Notes under the pieces: model-generated | The model's input: only the letters and a program-made list of their open reading frames with translations | The model's database searches: none | Told to the model about the DNA's origin: nothing | Part shown: positions 2,012-62,687 of the stretch, piece by piece | How positions within the stretch are numbered: position 1 is the first letter of the stretch | How the letters are laid out: each line of letters starts with the position of its first letter | DNA from: a virus | Length of the DNA: 64,000 bases | Reading direction: 5' to 3' (one strand) | IMG/VR virus record: IMGVR_UViG_3300050120_000210 | Span: 1-64,000 of that record | Program-made: the position numbers and the translations under genes

Positions 2012-2215
2012 TGAGTGAGATTATGTCAGGTGTTAACTATACGCCCAACCTGACGAAATAAGCGAAATCTAAACAACCAGAAGAACCAAATCATCATCGG
2101 AACGAATGATCCGATGGAGAGCGATTCCCTTTGCTACCAAAAAGGTTCGCAGGAAGTCCATTTCATTCAGTGATTTATATTGCTCACAGTATTCATGGAA
2201 GGTTATACATTAAAT

Positions 2216-3085
2216 ATGAGTTCAACCCCCACACCCGCACCAGTAACCGCCAAGATCAAATACATCAACAACAAGGAATTGCTGTCCGAAATCCACAACA
2301 GCAAGAAATCCTTCTGCTCCTTTATTGAACCGGAGCACGCCAACTTCGACACGATTGTTCACAACGTGTCACAGATCACGCCCACGCTGATCGAAGAAGT
2401 CCGGCTGAAGAAATCCAAGCCTCGGGGAAAGCCAGCCATCCCGCTCGACGATCTGCCGCCTGAAGGCATCGTCGTCCGCGTGATGACCTACGAGCACATC
2501 CCCCTCGACCCGGATCGCGTCCGCAAGAGCCGCGTCACCGACCAATCCTACGCCCGCACCAGTTTCCCGCCTTTCAAGCATTACGTCCTGCTGGCCGATG
2601 GCCCGAAGGAAGTTCTTCGTTCGCATTGGAAAGGCGGCTTCGACAACGGCCACTTCATCGCAGATCAGGGCCGGATCAACAACCGACTCGCGATGATGTT
2701 CATGCTGCTGGTCGAACGCTACTCCCGCCGGGGCAACTGGCGTGGCTACACCTACGTCGATGAAATGCGGAGCCAAGCTCTGCTGCAACTCTCCCAGATC
2801 GGCCTTCAGTTCGACGAATCCAAGTCGGACAATCCGTTTGCGTTCTACACGACTGCGATCCGAAATTGCTTCACAAGGGTCCTCAATCTCGAAAAGAAAT
2901 CGCAGAATATTCGCGATGACTTGCTCATCATGAGCGGCGCCTCTCCCTCTTATACGCGTCAGATCGACAACGAACTTGAGTATCGATTCCCCTCGGAGAA
3001 GTCTGGCGAAGCTCCCAAGCGTAGAGGACCGGGCGCTCCCAAGAAAGTCGTGGCCACAACAGCACCATCCGTGATCGACGATTAA
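2216..3085 (+). CDS. gp55: Late-transcription sigma factor, T4 gp55-like
   Basis: YINNKELL, NWRGYTYVDEM, FDESKSDNPFAFYT motifs; upstream of gp47/gp46 as in T4-like phages. Confidence 0.85.
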   Translation: MSSTPTPAPVTAKIKYINNKELLSEIHNSKKSFCSFIEPEHANFDTIVHNVSQITPTLIEEVRLKKSKPRGKPAIPLDDLPPEGIVVRVMTYEHIPLDPDRVRKSRVTDQSYARTSFPPFKHYVLLADGPKEVLRSHWKGGFDNGHFIADQGRINNRLAMMFMLLVERYSRRGNWRGYTYVDEMRSQALLQLSQIGLQFDESKSDNPFAFYTTAIRNCFTRVLNLEKKSQNIRDDLLIMSGASPSYTRQIDNELEYRFPSEKSGEAPKRRGPGAPKKVVATTAPSVIDD

Positions 3086-3147: not shown

Positions 3148-3693
3148 ATGTGCATTCTTCAAGAACGTGCTGCGATCATCAGTAAGATCGTCGAGCACCA
3201 AGACCTACGAGTTAAAACTGCCGCACAAGTTCGTCGGGCGCTGGATTACGCGCTCGACGGTGCAGAGAGCTTCGAAGAACTGGAAGCTGTCGAGAAATCT
3301 ATCATTGGAATCAAGATCGAGAAGTATTGGCTTCGCCAATTCGATTTCCCCATGAAGAAAACCAAGCAGAAATTGGAACGCCTGACTCGGGAAAATCCGG
3401 GTCAGGTGTTTCAAAATACCCTGCTGGATACCGAGATCGCCAACGTCCCGGTCGATCTGAAACACACCATCGGCGACAACTGGATGGTGCCGCTCGAAGC
3501 GGTTGGTCACTGGCTGCTGCTCTTCCAGACGAACATGGAAGGCAAGACCTTCAACCTCGGCCTGTTCAAGGCCGATCCCGAGAACCTCACCAAGGGCGGA
3601 AATCAGGACAAGAAGGTCAACATCTGCGCGAGCGCCAAGGAAACGATCACTTGGATCATCAAGGATGAACCGATTCCCGAGCGCCCAGCATGA
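3148..3693 (+). CDS. NaeI-family type II restriction endonuclease, catalytic domain only
   Basis: LDYALDG...EKSIIGIKIE...DTEIANVPVDLKHT..NWMVPLEAVGHWLL...GLFKA...NQDKK parallels the NaeI endonuclease domain as recalled (DYEIAGVQVDCKFS..WMLPPESIGH...NRDLK). Confidence 0.7.
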   Translation: MCILQERAAIISKIVEHQDLRVKTAAQVRRALDYALDGAESFEELEAVEKSIIGIKIEKYWLRQFDFPMKKTKQKLERLTRENPGQVFQNTLLDTEIANVPVDLKHTIGDNWMVPLEAVGHWLLLFQTNMEGKTFNLGLFKADPENLTKGGNQDKKVNICASAKETITWIIKDEPIPERPA

Positions 3694-4304
3694 AGTATTT
3701 CTTGCCGAACGCTACCCTTCCGCCGGGTCTGACATTGGAAAGCTTGCATAAAGCCATGGCTCAAACTGCGGATGTAGTTTCCCATCTCAATAATGCATTG
3801 TCAGAAAAAGACATGGGTCCGCTCTCGTCCATCATCCAGAGAAACAATTTTTCAGGAATCGTTTCGAATATTTTCACCAAGGCATTGGATACGCATTCTC
3901 CATTCAAGGATAACTCGGATCAGGAATATCCTGATCTCCTGAGTGAGACAGATGGTCTAGAAGTGAAATGCACATTCTCTGCTTCCAAAGGAGCGGAATC
4001 CCACAATGCTCATTCTGGTTGGCACGTCATCGGTAGTTTCGATTTGGTGGATAGTGCATTGGTATGGACGTGCATGAAATTCGCAAATCTTGTTGCATAT
4101 GATTTGCCTGATTCCGATTGGAATTACTGTGGTAGCAAAAGAAACGAAAACGGCAGTCAGCGCACAGAAACATATACCACTAATACGGTTGGTCGTGGGA
4201 AGTTGCTATCTGGTATCTGTTATCTGGATACTGACATGGTCCCCAATTGGCATCGTTGGCGGGGGCTAACGCCGCATATTCGTCAGAGTATTTTGAATGT
4301 TTGA
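3690..4304 (+). CDS. Putative PD-(D/E)xK restriction-type endonuclease
   Basis: YPDL...GLEVK catalytic-like motif; visibly AT-richer than flanks; ATGA-coupled to the NaeI-like gene. Confidence 0.5.
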   Translation: MKYFLPNATLPPGLTLESLHKAMAQTADVVSHLNNALSEKDMGPLSSIIQRNNFSGIVSNIFTKALDTHSPFKDNSDQEYPDLLSETDGLEVKCTFSASKGAESHNAHSGWHVIGSFDLVDSALVWTCMKFANLVAYDLPDSDWNYCGSKRNENGSQRTETYTTNTVGRGKLLSGICYLDTDMVPNWHRWRGLTPHIRQSILNV

Positions 4305-5328
4305 TCCTCTTTTCAAAAAAGCCGTTACGCTTACCGACGTACACTTCGGCCGCCAGAGCAACAGCCCCACGGCGAACCAAGACAATCTCGACTTCATTGA
4401 CTGGTTCATTGAGGAAGCGAAGACGTGGGGCGCCGAACGCTGCATCATGATGGGCGACTGGCACGACAACCGTCACAGCCTGAACGTCCTGACGATGAAC
4501 TACAGCTTGGAGGCGATGAAGAAGCTCAACGACGCCTTCGAAGTCGTTCACTGGGTGCCGGGCAATCACGACCTGTTCTACCGTGACAAGCGCGACGTGA
4601 GCAGCGTCTCGTTCGCCGATCTGCTGCCCAACGTGTCCATCGTCCGCAAGCCGACCACGGTGGCCGGGGTGACCTTCCTGCCGTGGCTGGTGGGCGATGA
4701 GTCCTCCAAGCTTCGGGCGCTGAAGTCTCGCTACATCTTTGGCCACCTCGAACTTGGTGGTTTCATGATGAATGCGAAGGTCGAGATGCCAGAGACGGAT
4801 CACGGTCTGAAGTCCACGACGTTCGTGAACCAAGACTACGTTTTCTCTGGTCACTTCCATATTCGCCAGCAGAAGAACAAGGTCGTCTATACCGGCAACA
4901 TCATGCCCTTCAACTTCTCGGACACATGGGACGAGGATCGCGGGATGATGTTCTTGGAATGGGGCAAGGAACCTTTCTTCAAGGCTTGGCCGGACCAGCC
5001 GCTTTTCCGCACGATGCGTCTGTCCGAGATGCTCGACAAACCGGCTCAACTCCTGAAGCCGCGCATGACCGCTCGCGTCGGGATCGACATCGAAATTTCC
5101 TACGAGGAAGCCCAATTCATTAAAGACAAGTTCCTTGGCGATTACGGTCTTCGGAAGATCGAGTTCGCACATCAAGCCAAAGGCAGCGTGGACGATCAGG
5201 AGTTCACCGGTGAAGTGATCTACCAGACCGTGGATCAAATTGTCGTGGATGGTCTCATGTCGGTGCAGAGCATCGGGATGAAGCCGGAAACACTCGTGCA
5301 AATCTACAAAGAACTGCCAAACCTGTGA
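4297..5328 (+). CDS. gp47: Recombination nuclease, gp47/Mre11/SbcD-like
   Basis: Metallophosphoesterase motifs TDVHFG, GDWHD, GNHD, GHLE, SGHFH. Confidence 0.92.
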   Translation: MFDPLFKKAVTLTDVHFGRQSNSPTANQDNLDFIDWFIEEAKTWGAERCIMMGDWHDNRHSLNVLTMNYSLEAMKKLNDAFEVVHWVPGNHDLFYRDKRDVSSVSFADLLPNVSIVRKPTTVAGVTFLPWLVGDESSKLRALKSRYIFGHLELGGFMMNAKVEMPETDHGLKSTTFVNQDYVFSGHFHIRQQKNKVVYTGNIMPFNFSDTWDEDRGMMFLEWGKEPFFKAWPDQPLFRTMRLSEMLDKPAQLLKPRMTARVGIDIEISYEEAQFIKDKFLGDYGLRKIEFAHQAKGSVDDQEFTGEVIYQTVDQIVVDGLMSVQSIGMKPETLVQIYKELPNL

Positions 5329-5816
5329 CTACTCATATTGAATTTCATTTGGTCCAGTTTCAAGGAAACACCGCCAAGTTAGCAAATGTCGTCTACAATT
5401 ACGACGAAGCGCACGATCTGTGCTACAATTTGAATCTAGAACATAGTAATGATGCAAATCGTTCTGTGTTTCAGGTGTTCGAAACTTCACGGTCGGAGCG
5501 GCGCGGGGGAACCGTTCTATCTAAGAGTGAATATGAAATTTGTTCGGCTGTTAGCCGAAAAGTTCCTATCTGCGATTCCAGTGAATTCAAGTTCATCCCC
5601 GTGTTTTCTACTAACATCAGATTGTGCAAGCTTATTGAAATACACGACGATGGAAGACCAATGTATAATACGACATTAGCCCCCGCATATGAACTGTGTG
5701 CATTTCGAGGGGGTAACAACTGGCAAGTTCAATTTATTGCCAACAAAGCCATTTTGATTGGCTCGAAGGTAGATTTCGATGCTGATTTCTTGTTTCTCAG
5801 AGCATTTGCCGCTTAA
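5325..5816 (+). CDS. Hypothetical protein, AT-rich insert between gp47 and gp46
   Basis: 163-aa ORF, GTGA overlap with gp47 stop, atypical composition. Confidence 0.55.
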   Translation: MTTHIEFHLVQFQGNTAKLANVVYNYDEAHDLCYNLNLEHSNDANRSVFQVFETSRSERRGGTVLSKSEYEICSAVSRKVPICDSSEFKFIPVFSTNIRLCKLIEIHDDGRPMYNTTLAPAYELCAFRGGNNWQVQFIANKAILIGSKVDFDADFLFLRAFAA

Positions 5817-5830
5817 ATTAGAGTTAGTAG

Positions 5831-7894
5831 ATGATTTCGATCAAAAACCTGACGATGAAAAACTTCTTGTCGGTCGGCGCGGTCACACTCGCGCTCAACC
5901 TCGACAAGCATGGGTTGACGTTGGTACTCGGCGCCAACACCGACACGGCTGGTGGCCTGACGCGGAATGGTGCGGGCAAGACGACAGTGCTGCAAGCGAT
6001 CAGCTTCGCGCTCTACGGCAAGCCGCTGTCGAAGATCAAGATTCCGAATCTCATCAATAACGTCAACAACAAGCAGATGTTGGTGACCATCGAGTTCTCG
6101 CGCGGCGACCAGAACTATCGGATCGAGCGTGGACGCAAGCCCGACGTGATGAAATTCTACGTCAACAACCATGAGGTGAAGGACGAAGAGCCGGTCGGCG
6201 GTGAGCAGCAAGGCGAAAACCGCCACACGCAGGAAGAAATCGAACGCATCATCGGCATGAGCCACACAATGTTCAAACACATCGTGGCGCTCAACACCTA
6301 TACCGACCCGTTCCTGCGGATGCCGGTCTCGAACCAACGCGAAGTGATCGAAGAGCTTCTCGGCGTCACGCAAATCAGCACGCGTGCTGAAGTGCTGAAG
6401 AAGCTCATCGGTCAGACCAAAGAAACCATGCGCGACGAACAGGCTGGCCTCAAGGCCACCATCGAAGCGAACACTCGTATCGAGAATGCCATCGTGCAGG
6501 CCGAGACGCTTTCGACCGCATGGCTAACCGAGCATGAGACGACGATCACCGTGCTCGGCGAAGAGATCACGGCGATGAAGGACATCGACTACGAGGCAGA
6601 GATCGTCAAGTTTGACGCCATCGACGCATGGACCACCAAGGAGAAAGAAATCCACGGTGGATTTGATGCGGCCTCGCGCGAAATCTCCCTGCTGACTCGC
6701 GAAATCTCTGCTCTGGAATCCGAAGCCTCCCGTCTGACCAAGGATGCCCACACTGATATCTCGGCCCAAGTTCGGCGCTTCGAGAGCGAGAAGGCTCGTA
6801 AGGAAAAAGACATCGCCAACATGCGTGGCGATGTCGAGACGAAGAAAGCCGAACTGGTCAAGCTTCGCAGCGATATCGAGCTTTCTGGTAAACTGGAATG
6901 CTTCTGCTGCGGCCAAGAGCTTGAAGGCACCGATCATCTGGAAACGGTGCTCGGCAAGATGCACCGCGACGTGGGCCTGCGTGAAAAATCCATCGCCGAT
7001 TTCCAAGCGGCTATCGAAGAACTGACCGCCGAAGTCGCGCACATCGACGAAGAGATCGAACACGTCACCACGGCGGCCGAAACTCGTCGAGTGGACTTCG
7101 AAGCCAAGGCGAAAGCCAAGCTCGATGCGACCAAGGAACCGAAGGGGCGCCTGACGGCCCAAGAGGCTTTGGCGTCGTCGTTTGGCGGGCTCATGAAGAC
7201 GCTCGGTGATCGTCCCGAAGCGTTGTTCTCGACCCGCGACGAAGTCTATCGAGCCAAGCAACTGTTCGACAAATTGGTGCGCGAGGTTGAACTCGAATCC
7301 GCCAAGGAGAACCCGCACGCGAATCAGATTGAGACGTTCCGGGCTACCCTGCAAACGGTGGACTACACTTCCATCAACGATCTCGATGATCTCCACAAGC
7401 ACCAAGATTTCCTGCTGCGGCTGCTGACCAACAAGGACAGCTTCATCCGCAAGAAAATCATCGATCAAAATCTGAACTACCTGAACAGCCGCCTGAACCA
7501 CTATCTGGAAAAGCTCGGGCTGCCGCACGAAGTCCGGTTCCAATCCGATCTCAGCGTGGACATCACGCTGCTCGGCCGGGACTTCGACTTCGAGCAGCTT
7601 TCTCGTGGTGAAATGAACCGCGTCATCATGGCCACCTCGTGGAGCTTCCGCGACGTGTGGGAGAGCCTGAACGAGGGCTTCAACCTGCTGTTCGTGGATG
7701 AGATGCTCGATCAAGGCACCGACGCCCAAGGCGTTGAGGCCGCGCTCAGCATCCTCAAGAGCATGGCGCGTGACCGGAACAAGAACGTGTTCCTCATCAG
7801 TCACCGGGACGATCTGACGGCTCGCATCGACCGCATCCTTCTGGTGCGAAAAGAAAATGGCTTCACGCGCTTCGAGGAAGACGCACTTGTTTGA
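5831..7894 (+). CDS. gp46: Recombination ATPase, gp46/Rad50/SbcC-like
   Basis: Walker A NGAGKT, long coiled coil with CxxC hook (CFCC), LSRGE signature, FVDE Walker B, ISH. Confidence 0.93.
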   Translation: MISIKNLTMKNFLSVGAVTLALNLDKHGLTLVLGANTDTAGGLTRNGAGKTTVLQAISFALYGKPLSKIKIPNLINNVNNKQMLVTIEFSRGDQNYRIERGRKPDVMKFYVNNHEVKDEEPVGGEQQGENRHTQEEIERIIGMSHTMFKHIVALNTYTDPFLRMPVSNQREVIEELLGVTQISTRAEVLKKLIGQTKETMRDEQAGLKATIEANTRIENAIVQAETLSTAWLTEHETTITVLGEEITAMKDIDYEAEIVKFDAIDAWTTKEKEIHGGFDAASREISLLTREISALESEASRLTKDAHTDISAQVRRFESEKARKEKDIANMRGDVETKKAELVKLRSDIELSGKLECFCCGQELEGTDHLETVLGKMHRDVGLREKSIADFQAAIEELTAEVAHIDEEIEHVTTAAETRRVDFEAKAKAKLDATKEPKGRLTAQEALASSFGGLMKTLGDRPEALFSTRDEVYRAKQLFDKLVREVELESAKENPHANQIETFRATLQTVDYTSINDLDDLHKHQDFLLRLLTNKDSFIRKKIIDQNLNYLNSRLNHYLEKLGLPHEVRFQSDLSVDITLLGRDFDFEQLSRGEMNRVIMATSWSFRDVWESLNEGFNLLFVDEMLDQGTDAQGVEAALSILKSMARDRNKNVFLISHRDDLTARIDRILLVRKENGFTRFEEDALV

Positions 7895-61682: not shown

Positions 61683-62687
61683 TTACGAAATGACGAAACC
61701 CTCGTTGGACGCGTTCAATATTCGCTGACCAAGCCAGTGAACGTCCTTAACGTTCAGCGAATTACCGATAGCTTTGTAACGGACGGTGTCCGAAGCCATT
61801 CCTCGGCCGAACGGCACGAGTGTGTGATTGTCGGGCATTCCCATAAGCCGCTCGCACTCCAACGGCGATAGCTGACGGACATGCGGTGAGACTCCGTCGT
61901 CGATCAATGCAAAAGCCTTGTCAGAGCCCCCAGTAGAGGCGCGGAGGCAATTGGCCACCTCGTCACCGATCTCAAGCTCTTCGCCGTCTACGCGCCCTCT
62001 GAAGGCTACTGTGAACGCGCGCGATCCAGAGCGAGCTTCAAGAGCAGCGGCAAGTGCTTTCCGCGAGCGATCAGGTGTTGGTAGAGCTTCTGTGCCCGAC
62101 CTTTCTTCAAAAAGTATCCTCCGTGGATCGGCCCCGTCTCTAGGACAGGCCACAAGGAAGACGCGCTCGCGTCGTTGCGGAACTCCTGAGTGTTTGGCGT
62201 CAAGGAGCCGCCAAGCGATGTTTCGACGGGGTCCAGACACACAACCAGCGTGCGTCCATCCTTCCCCTGCTGGGACCAGCGGAGTGTCTTCTCCGGCCAA
62301 CGCTGCAAGTAGGCATCCAAAGGCATTGTTTTTGTCACTCAAAATTCCCTTCACGTTCTCGAAGCAGACGAACGGAGGGTTGATGTCGTCAGCCAAATTA
62401 CAGAAGCTCAGTGTCAGGGCGCCACGGGGATCGGCCGCGCCAGCGCGCCTACCGGCCAGAGAGAACGCCTGACAGGGAGTCGATCCCCACAGGATATCCA
62501 CCTTGTCGGCCCATTCTTTCCCGTCGATCTTGGTCAAGTCCCCAAGGTCCGGCACATGCGGCCAACGATAGGCTAGAACAGCCTTGGGGAACGGTTCGAT
62601 CTCGGAGAAAGCCACAGGCGTGAAGCCAAGCGGCTCCCACGCCAGAGAGACCGCATCAACGCCGCTGCATACGGTGAGGTAGCGCAT
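61683..62687 (-). CDS. dcm: DNA cytosine-C5 methyltransferase (alpha polypeptide)
   Basis: Motif I VCSGV, GSTPCQAFS, FENVKG, PQRRER, LSPLECERLMG, YKAIGNS. Confidence 0.92.
   Translation of the reverse strand: MRYLTVCSGVDAVSLAWEPLGFTPVAFSEIEPFPKAVLAYRWPHVPDLGDLTKIDGKEWADKVDILWGSTPCQAFSLAGRRAGAADPRGALTLSFCNLADDINPPFVCFENVKGILSDKNNAFGCLLAALAGEDTPLVPAGEGWTHAGCVSGPRRNIAWRLLDAKHSGVPQRRERVFLVACPRDGADPRRILFEERSGTEALPTPDRSRKALAAALEARSGSRAFTVAFRGRVDGEELEIGDEVANCLRASTGGSDKAFALIDDGVSPHVRQLSPLECERLMGMPDNHTLVPFGRGMASDTVRYKAIGNSLNVKDVHWLGQRILNASNEGFVIS
62006..62338 (-). CDS. Nested out-of-frame beta polypeptide of the methyltransferase, M.EcoHK31I-beta-like
   Basis: LTPNTQEFRNDASASSLWPVLETGPIHGGYFL...RGKHLPLLLKLAL in an alternate frame starting just after the ENV motif. 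Confidence 0.65.
   Translation of the reverse strand: MTKTMPLDAYLQRWPEKTLRWSQQGKDGRTLVVCLDPVETSLGGSLTPNTQEFRNDASASSLWPVLETGPIHGGYFLKKGRAQKLYQHLIARGKHLPLLLKLALDRARSQ

Follow-up and report, generated by a model that had tools for sequence, protein, structure and literature searches.

It is clear that an uncultured T4-like megaphage carries a restriction endonuclease gene of the NaeI family between its late sigma factor gene and the genes for its recombination nuclease, and judged from its sequence this nuclease is apparently intact, methylase-less and active. The phage DNA holds no copy of GCCGGC, and the loss of this site is a trait of the sub-clade to which the phage belongs, one that permits the methylase-free gene and was not caused by it. 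The protein adds a further member to a known family; new are the arrangement, in which a pair of methylase-less nucleases occupies a recurrent slot beside the Mre11/Rad50 genes, the recognition of the gp55-gp47 junction as an insertion hot spot with nuclease swapping, and the contrast in sites between the carriers of MvaI- and BcnI-like genes at that junction.

The window, by which we mean the whole 64-kb stretch of DNA that was analysed, is the first part of one 149,124-bp record. Since this record is linear, lacks a terminal repeat and has a CheckV completeness of 26%, it is a fragment of a T4-like megaphage and not a whole genome; a preliminary description of the window had spoken of the whole genome, of which the record covers only ~26% by the CheckV estimate. 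The sole sequencing run in which the locus was found is a peat metagenome, the probable source of the phage. The nearest relative (G001, locus L009) is a 39.6-kb fragment whose gp46 is 87% identical, the other best relatives are the complete phages G002 (578 kb) and G003 (500 kb), and the cultured relatives, at ~40% identity, are Sinorhizobium phage Phosso and Agrobacterium phage Atu_ph07. The genes under discussion are collected in Table 1.

Table 1. Genes of the phage record that bear on the nuclease slot (positions are those of the window)
Feature	Position	Strand	Evidence
gp55-like late sigma factor, conserved upstream flank	2180-3085	+	phrog_12791 'sigma factor for late transcription', E 1.5e-77
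Solitary NaeI-family endonuclease, catalytic (Endo) domain alone, 181 aa	3148-3693	+	ATG ORF; Pfam, fold, residues
ORF204, second restriction-fold (PD-ExK) nuclease, unclassified family, 204 aa	3690-4304	+	Motif, fold
gp47, Mre11/SbcD-like nuclease subunit, conserved downstream flank	4297-5328	+	Metallophos matches
ORF163, low-GC insert between gp47 and gp46	5325-5816	+	GC 42%, GC3 43%
gp46, Rad50/SbcC-like ATPase subunit	5831-7894	+	AAA_23, SMC_N matches
Solitary C5 cytosine DNA methylase, sole cytosine methylase in the record	61683-62687	-	PF00145, E 1.8e-41

The preliminary description had read the 181-aa product as the NaeI endonuclease domain without the C-terminal Topo/effector domain, and profile and fold both bear this out. 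The Pfam family NaeI (PF09126) is matched with an E-value of 3.2e-19 and a score of 69.7 bits (cut-off 25) over profile positions 15-157 of 288, which is the catalytic half; the phage protein stops at the equivalent of position 157, and the Topo/effector domain is missing. The gene was recovered again by a six-frame search of the record, and a phmmer search of the PDB returned NaeI alone (1ev7/1iaw), at 22-24% identity. The structural comparison with NaeI that had been suggested as a check gave the same answer: an AlphaFold model, built with a homologue alignment as input, reached a pLDDT of 97, and its top Foldseek matches were the NaeI chains 1iaw/1ev7 (E 2.7e-12 to 8e-11, TM 0.76 over the query), the next family following only at E > 1e-2. 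On this model the protein is predicted to have the EcoRV-branch PD-(D/E)XK fold of the NaeI Endo domain. Residues E58, D94, D103 and K105 align with E70, D86, D95 and K97 of NaeI, which we take to be the catalytic set of that enzyme in this numbering; the four do not vary among close homologues and are conserved to at least 90% across 35 family members, and together with the motifs WMVP and NQDKK they are invariant in homologues down to ~40% identity. A symmetric homodimer, formed via helices 34-56 and 71-78, is predicted with a score of 0.63 against 0.02 for the best of three controls (100% contact agreement between runs, partner pLDDT 88); of the proteins solved as pairs 20 of 30 scored this high, as did 1 of 23 solved as single chains, and because the NaeI dimer has already been solved the homodimer score may merely reflect likeness to NaeI and not binding.

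Some 310 relatives of the family were found among the 1.8 billion representatives searched. The closest are all 150-200 aa long, the two-domain NaeI-type forms (260-330 aa) being more distant from the phage protein, and the closest homologues (P0002-P0004) share 59-66% and 45% identity with it. Short NaeI-like genes (162-187 aa) adjoin C5 methylases in Leptolyngbya (L007) and at the loci L004 and L003, a pairing which implies that NaeI homologues consisting of the catalytic domain only serve as ordinary restriction enzymes, so that loss of the effector domain should give a plain type IIP enzyme and not inactivity. Lacking the second, effector (Topo/CAP-like) domain, the phage protein is not type IIE and would be expected to cleave in simple type IIP fashion, without activation by another copy of its site. 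It is improbable, in our estimation, that the protein is an inactive relic or has taken on another function, such as nicking or structure-specific cleavage in aid of gp46/47 recombination. Such a role would suit a gene that adjoins those for a recombination nuclease, has lost its effector domain and is dispensable in relatives, but the invariance of the catalytic residues and of both motifs, the confident NaeI-like model, the presence of short homologues in canonical restriction-modification (R-M) pairs and the symmetry of the predicted dimer, as for a palindrome cutter, all argue for a working enzyme. No NaeI-like gene was found in the cultured-phage collection, by near-identity and protein searches, or in a single-protein scan of viral contigs.

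The position of the gene between gp55 and gp47, as first described, holds, with the addition that a further ORF, ORF204, separates it from gp47. Synteny of the gp55-like gene extends over 70 related loci and Atu_ph07; gp47 is 61-86% identical to its counterparts in relatives and is annotated in Atu_ph07 as a 'recombination-related endonuclease', and gp46 shares ~40% identity with those of Phosso and Atu_ph07. In about 60 of the 70 related loci gp55 and gp47 lie 10-160 bp apart, and the junction is likewise tight in Atu_ph07, whereas here it holds an insert of 1.2 kb with two genes. Overlaps of 4-8 bp join the NaeI-like gene, ORF204, gp47 and ORF163, the start of ORF204 overlapping the NaeI-like stop and its end overlapping the start of gp47. 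A search for plus-strand terminators between 1900 and 8300 found none, and a promoter scan at the locus did not rise above the level of chance. Given the overlaps and the lack of a terminator, the NaeI-like gene is predicted to be co-transcribed with gp47 and gp46.

The second gene of the insert has no match in Pfam, PHROG or NCBIfam, and no relative of it was found in viral contigs; its roughly 100 homologues are mostly bacterial fusions with an N-terminal XRE-type HTH. The invariant motif P81-D82...E91-x-K93 and a model with a pLDDT of 91, for which Foldseek ranks NaeI 1ev7 first (E 6e-4, prob 1.0), followed by EcoRV, SfiI, BglI and PvuII, point to a restriction-enzyme fold. The possibilities that ORF204 supplies the missing Topo domain or a methylase were ruled out by this motif and fold and by the lack of a winged helix. 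At 45% GC and 45% GC3 (the 0.7th percentile of the record), against ~70-76% GC3 in its neighbours, ORF204 is compositionally foreign and therefore looks like a recent arrival, while the NaeI-like ORF, with a GC3 of 67%, near that of its neighbours, looks resident. Between gp47 and gp46, ORF163, for which there was no family match, nothing in the ESM Atlas and no relative among 86 loci, is a further recent insertion into the operon of the recombination nuclease.

The absence of GCCGGC is far beyond chance. Where a manual count had found no site and rough arithmetic had predicted a few tens, exact counting gives no copy in the window, for which dinucleotide shuffles predict 27.8 +/- 5.2, and none in the whole record, for which the expectations are 64 (order 1), 105 (order 2) and 97 (maximal-order Markov). 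Codon resampling that left the proteins and the codon usage unchanged predicts 83 +/- 9 sites in the 133 ORFs, and none is seen. The spelling GCC-GGC was used for 0 of 262 Ala-Gly pairs, with 46 expected, from which it follows that the purge was made by synonymous choice. The earlier caution that other palindromes are also missing was correct, even understated: 26 of the 64 palindromic hexamers are absent from the record, among them CGATCG (0/116), CCGCGG (0/79) and GTCGAC (0/74), as against 33 of the 4032 non-palindromic hexamers, most of which either include CCWGG or differ by one base from an absent palindrome. CCWGG itself occurs 0 times, with ~248 expected. Among other features of the composition of the record, RGATCY and SAGCTS are missing although GATC is normal (1022), GTAC is depleted (39 vs 240), and GGCGCC, CGGCCG and TGGCCA are over-represented about twofold.

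The relatives that lack the gene show how its relation to the purge should be read. G002 holds 0 copies of GCCGGC and 718 of the reversed word CGGCCG, G003 holds 4 and 111, and the nearest relative, with another nuclease in the slot, holds 0 and 45; a NaeI-type gene was sought in all three with the Pfam model and a family profile and none was found, the positive controls being the present record (E 8e-20) and G006 (E 8e-61). The preliminary description had proposed that the phage protects itself from its carried enzyme by site loss. Equal depletion in relatives without the gene, which it had itself set against that proposal, is what emerged when those relatives were checked, and self-protection from the carried enzyme does not account for the absence. 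Because the purge is lineage-wide and embraces 26 palindromes, it either predates the NaeI-like gene or is independent of it, and in this high-GC sub-clade it is most simply explained by host restriction. Non-temperate dsDNA phages are known to eliminate orthodox type II palindromic sites completely or nearly so (Rusinov et al., 2018; PMC6286503), an avoidance like that seen here which accounts for the absence without the gene; that survey credits host R-M systems and does not cover solitary endonucleases borne by phages. Phage-type loci that do have a NaeI homologue are all GCCGGC-free (L002, 0/10; L005, 0/5; G006, 0 against 32 CGGCCG). More distant relatives do not all share the purge: Phosso (469 kb) carries 154 GCCGGC and 86 CGGCCG, and Atu_ph07 (490 kb) has neither word. 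The lesson is that relatives must be examined before the absence of a site is taken as adaptation to a nuclease that the phage carries.

With no GCCGGC in its carrier, the enzyme would be harmless to that carrier if NaeI specificity has been kept. Restriction enzymes at 22-24% identity often differ in specificity. Ten palindromes are missing both from the record and from the locus of a phage with a related gene (L002), a pattern that fits GCCGGC or at least nine other palindromes, and any of the ten would therefore fit self-immunity as well as GCCGGC does. That GCCGGC is the target of the NaeI-like enzyme stands, in our judgement, at about even odds. Differences between close relatives are also seen: AGCGCT is missing from this record alone (0/38, against 13/12, 55/47 and 60/43 in G001, G002 and G003), and KGCGCA (GGCGCA/TGCGCC 0/125 plus TGCGCA 0/61) is missing from the record and from G002 and present in G001 and G003. 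AGCGCT and KGCGCA are candidate targets of lineage-specific nucleases such as ORF204, or of host systems.

As had been noted at the outset, no methylase adjoins the NaeI-like gene, the one cytosine methylase of the record lying 58 kb off, and a linked cognate methyltransferase, the criterion for a type II R-M system, was not found within the operon; nor does the record hold a gene of the N4/N6 family PF01555. The N-terminal motifs of the distant C5 methylase resemble those of M.HhaI and M.HaeIII. Compared with the methylases that flank short NaeI-like genes it is 24-28% identical, through shared motifs only, and those in L004 and L007 are 50% identical to each other; the candidacy of this gene as cognate partner is unsupported, the identity being confined to the common motifs. 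Because the record is only 26% complete, the rest of the genome could encode a cognate methylase or an inhibitor. A separated R-M system acting in superinfection exclusion, with its methylase either in this C5 gene or in the unsequenced 74%, has some precedent, in that such systems are documented in prokaryotes (PMC3488263); C5 methylases partner short NaeI-family genes in bacteria, one C5 methylase does lie in the window, and in a related locus (L006) an N6_N4 methylase is found two genes upstream of the NaeI-like gene. We nevertheless regard such a system as highly improbable, for a site-free genome leaves a cognate methylase nothing to protect, none is present within the operon, and the one available is just 24-28% identical to the family's flanking methylases.

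The same slot is filled in a variety of ways in related phages. In the nearest relative it holds (L009, 7136-8526) a 266-aa MvaI-like endonuclease (PF15515, E 8e-26; PDB 2oa9, E 1.5e-13) and an unrelated 200-aa ORF, whose named ESM Atlas look-alikes, with weak scores, are only restriction families (DpnI, Bsp6I, PvuII). L008 has a BcnI-like gene (PDB 2odh, E 3.5e-8), and L001 (1405-2340) a 311-aa protein in which a NaeI catalytic domain is fused to an Eco29kI/GIY-YIG nuclease domain; a gene of this fusion type, 99-100% identical, is split in L002 (9989-10785) by a frame-breaking deletion of 139 bp. The order before gp47 in L006 is the N6_N4 methylase, an unknown ORF, the NaeI-like gene and a small ORF. 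The slot of Phosso contains a glycosyltransferase and a small ORF, and that of Atu_ph07 is empty. The Eco29kI family (PF09517) had no match in G000-G004. Three further observations were made in these relatives: a third gene of the MvaI/BcnI family lies outside the slot in G003 (G003:C1:387100-387702), the first 140 kb of which is CCWGG-free; gp55 of L008 (2890-5676), a single ORF of 928 aa, is interrupted in frame by two inserts of ~1 kb; and gp55 of L012 has one such insert (~6102-7132). The gp55 inserts of L008 and L012 look like inteins in the late sigma factor.

In each of these phages the site that corresponds to the carried nuclease is missing or nearly so. The carrier of the MvaI-like gene (G001) has CCWGG at 0/74 and CCSGG at 116/119, whereas the carrier of the BcnI-like gene (G004) has CCWGG at 35/47, CCSGG at 2/33 and normal CCGG, and in the L001/L002 lineage CCGCGG, the Eco29kI site, and GCCGGC are both absent. 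The rule that emerges is one of compatibility, solitary nucleases occurring only in DNA that lacks their sites, and is not proof of cause. The contrast between CCWGG-free and CCSGG-poor carriers makes this rule of gene-site compatibility testable across metagenomes.

What the NaeI-like enzyme does for the phage can be framed in terms of two principal readings. The one we prefer, at an even chance, is that of an active, homodimeric and methylase-free type IIP-like enzyme of the NaeI family that cuts host or rival DNA and feeds the gp46/47 nuclease. The gene would be an accessory one, inserted together with ORF204 into the otherwise tight gp55-gp47 junction and transcribed through into gp47 and gp46. 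The phage would tolerate the enzyme since its DNA had previously been purged, by synonymous recoding, of GCCGGC and about 25 other palindromes. The enzyme would then make double-strand breaks in unmodified DNA that bears the site, be it the host chromosome, plasmids or co-infecting phages, and the gp46/47 exonuclease would resect the broken ends. It is plausible that the enzyme acts against the DNA of the host or of competitors, given that the gene has the orientation of gp47/gp46 and is translationally coupled with them, and that the MvaI- and BcnI-like genes of the slot go with CCWGG-free and CCSGG-poor DNA, respectively. The identity of the victims is putative, Phosso with its 154 GCCGGC being a possible one, and the cooperation with gp46/47 is suggested by adjacency alone.

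The second reading, possible although on the unlikely side, is that the NaeI-like gene and ORF204 form a selfish mobile nuclease cassette, comparable to the seg and mob genes, that spreads between co-infecting relatives by way of its gp55 and gp47 flanks, possibly cutting genomes without the cassette and bringing the phage little or no benefit. The gene is dispensable, most relatives having an empty slot and the homologue in L002 being broken, and the empty slots and this decay suit a selfish element no less well than they suit a useful weapon. Also consistent with a cassette are the presence/absence polymorphism at this one intergenic junction, with gp55 and gp47 10-160 bp apart in most loci, the unrelated nuclease genes at the identical place in the nearest relative, whose gp46 is so similar, the foreign composition of ORF204, and the ~1-kb in-frame gp55 inserts of L008 and L012, a sign of mobile-element traffic; the promoter-less cassettes of T4, which are read from upstream, match the arrangement here. 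The preliminary description had called the enzyme domesticated, a term that is doubtful for a gene which lies in such a hot spot and behaves as a swappable cassette. Several observations nevertheless count against the cassette. There are 0 copies of GCCGGC in G001 and G002 and, of the 4 in G003, none falls in its gp55-gp47 locus (L011, 169893-191944), so that a NaeI-type 6-bp specificity cannot drive homing within the clade. The families concerned are orthodox type II enzymes from bacterial R-M pairs and not known homing families, and the near-native GC3 of the NaeI-like ORF, with homologues conserved at 59-66%, suggests long residence under purifying selection.

To return to an offensive role, it can be extended to the whole clade, although we consider the extension doubtful. 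The gp55-gp47 junction would be an exchangeable weapon slot, and methylase-free enzymes of NaeI, MvaI, BcnI and Eco29kI type, with the new PD-ExK family, circulating between co-infecting phages, would drive the clade-wide palindrome purge, not host R-M alone. The missing sites would then mirror the nuclease repertoire of the clade as a whole, and differences between sister phages, such as the absence of AGCGCT only here, would point to the target of ORF204.

Restriction enzymes are textbook host defences, lethal without a methylase. The phage is able to keep two restriction-type nucleases in tandem without one because its own DNA offers no target, and if the enzymes are active they would be offensive tools against host or rival DNA that require no marking of self. 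In that case the locus would also be a natural supply of single-domain restriction enzymes of compact size (181 aa), together with one nuclease family as yet unclassified.

Comparison with better known systems is instructive. R.NaeI of Lechevalieria (Nocardia) aerocolonigenes is a type IIE enzyme that cuts GCC^GGC (PDB 1ev7, 1iaw; PF09126). The phage protein resembles it in the fold of the Endo domain, in the E...D...D-x-K catalytic residues and in the predicted dimerisation by the same domain, and differs in having no CAP-like Topo domain, in its identity of 22-24%, in the lack of an adjacent methylase of M.NaeI type, in being phage-borne and in its target, which is only putative. The short NaeI enzymes of bacteria (160-190 aa), such as that of Leptolyngbya cf. 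ectocarpi LEGE 11479 (L007), are closer in their single domain, length and motifs, at 33-38% identity, but they adjoin a C5 methylase of cognate type, whereas the phage relies on site absence. In T4 the breakdown of host DNA begins with cuts by EndoII (denA), followed by the gp46/47 exonuclease, and T4 marks its own DNA by hydroxymethyl-cytosine and not by the absence of sites. The likeness here is that a nuclease gene shares an operon with gp47 and gp46; EndoII, however, belongs to another nuclease family, and cooperation with gp46/47 is putative in the present phage. Chloroviruses such as PBCV-1 also encode type II restriction enzymes, which are thought to break down the host's DNA at an early stage of infection, but each of these genes invariably has a companion methylase next to it, and methylation shields the DNA of the virus (PMC7019647), whereas here, where there is no methylase, protection would come from site absence. 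Many of the free-standing endonucleases of T4 are promoter-less cassettes read from upstream genes, and SegH and Hef are reported to replace mobC and mobE in T4 relatives (PMC2988022). The present genes are like the seg and mob genes of T-even phages in lying between conserved genes, in their presence/absence polymorphism and in the swapping of unrelated nucleases at one site; the seg and mob products, unlike those described here, belong to the GIY-YIG or HNH type and have long degenerate targets, which lie in the neighbouring gene of phages with the empty site, whereas the family here is type II and its canonical 6-bp site is missing or nearly so in close relatives. Site avoidance, viral restriction enzymes and free-standing endonucleases are each known themes, and the methylase-less pair of nucleases described here is a variation on them.
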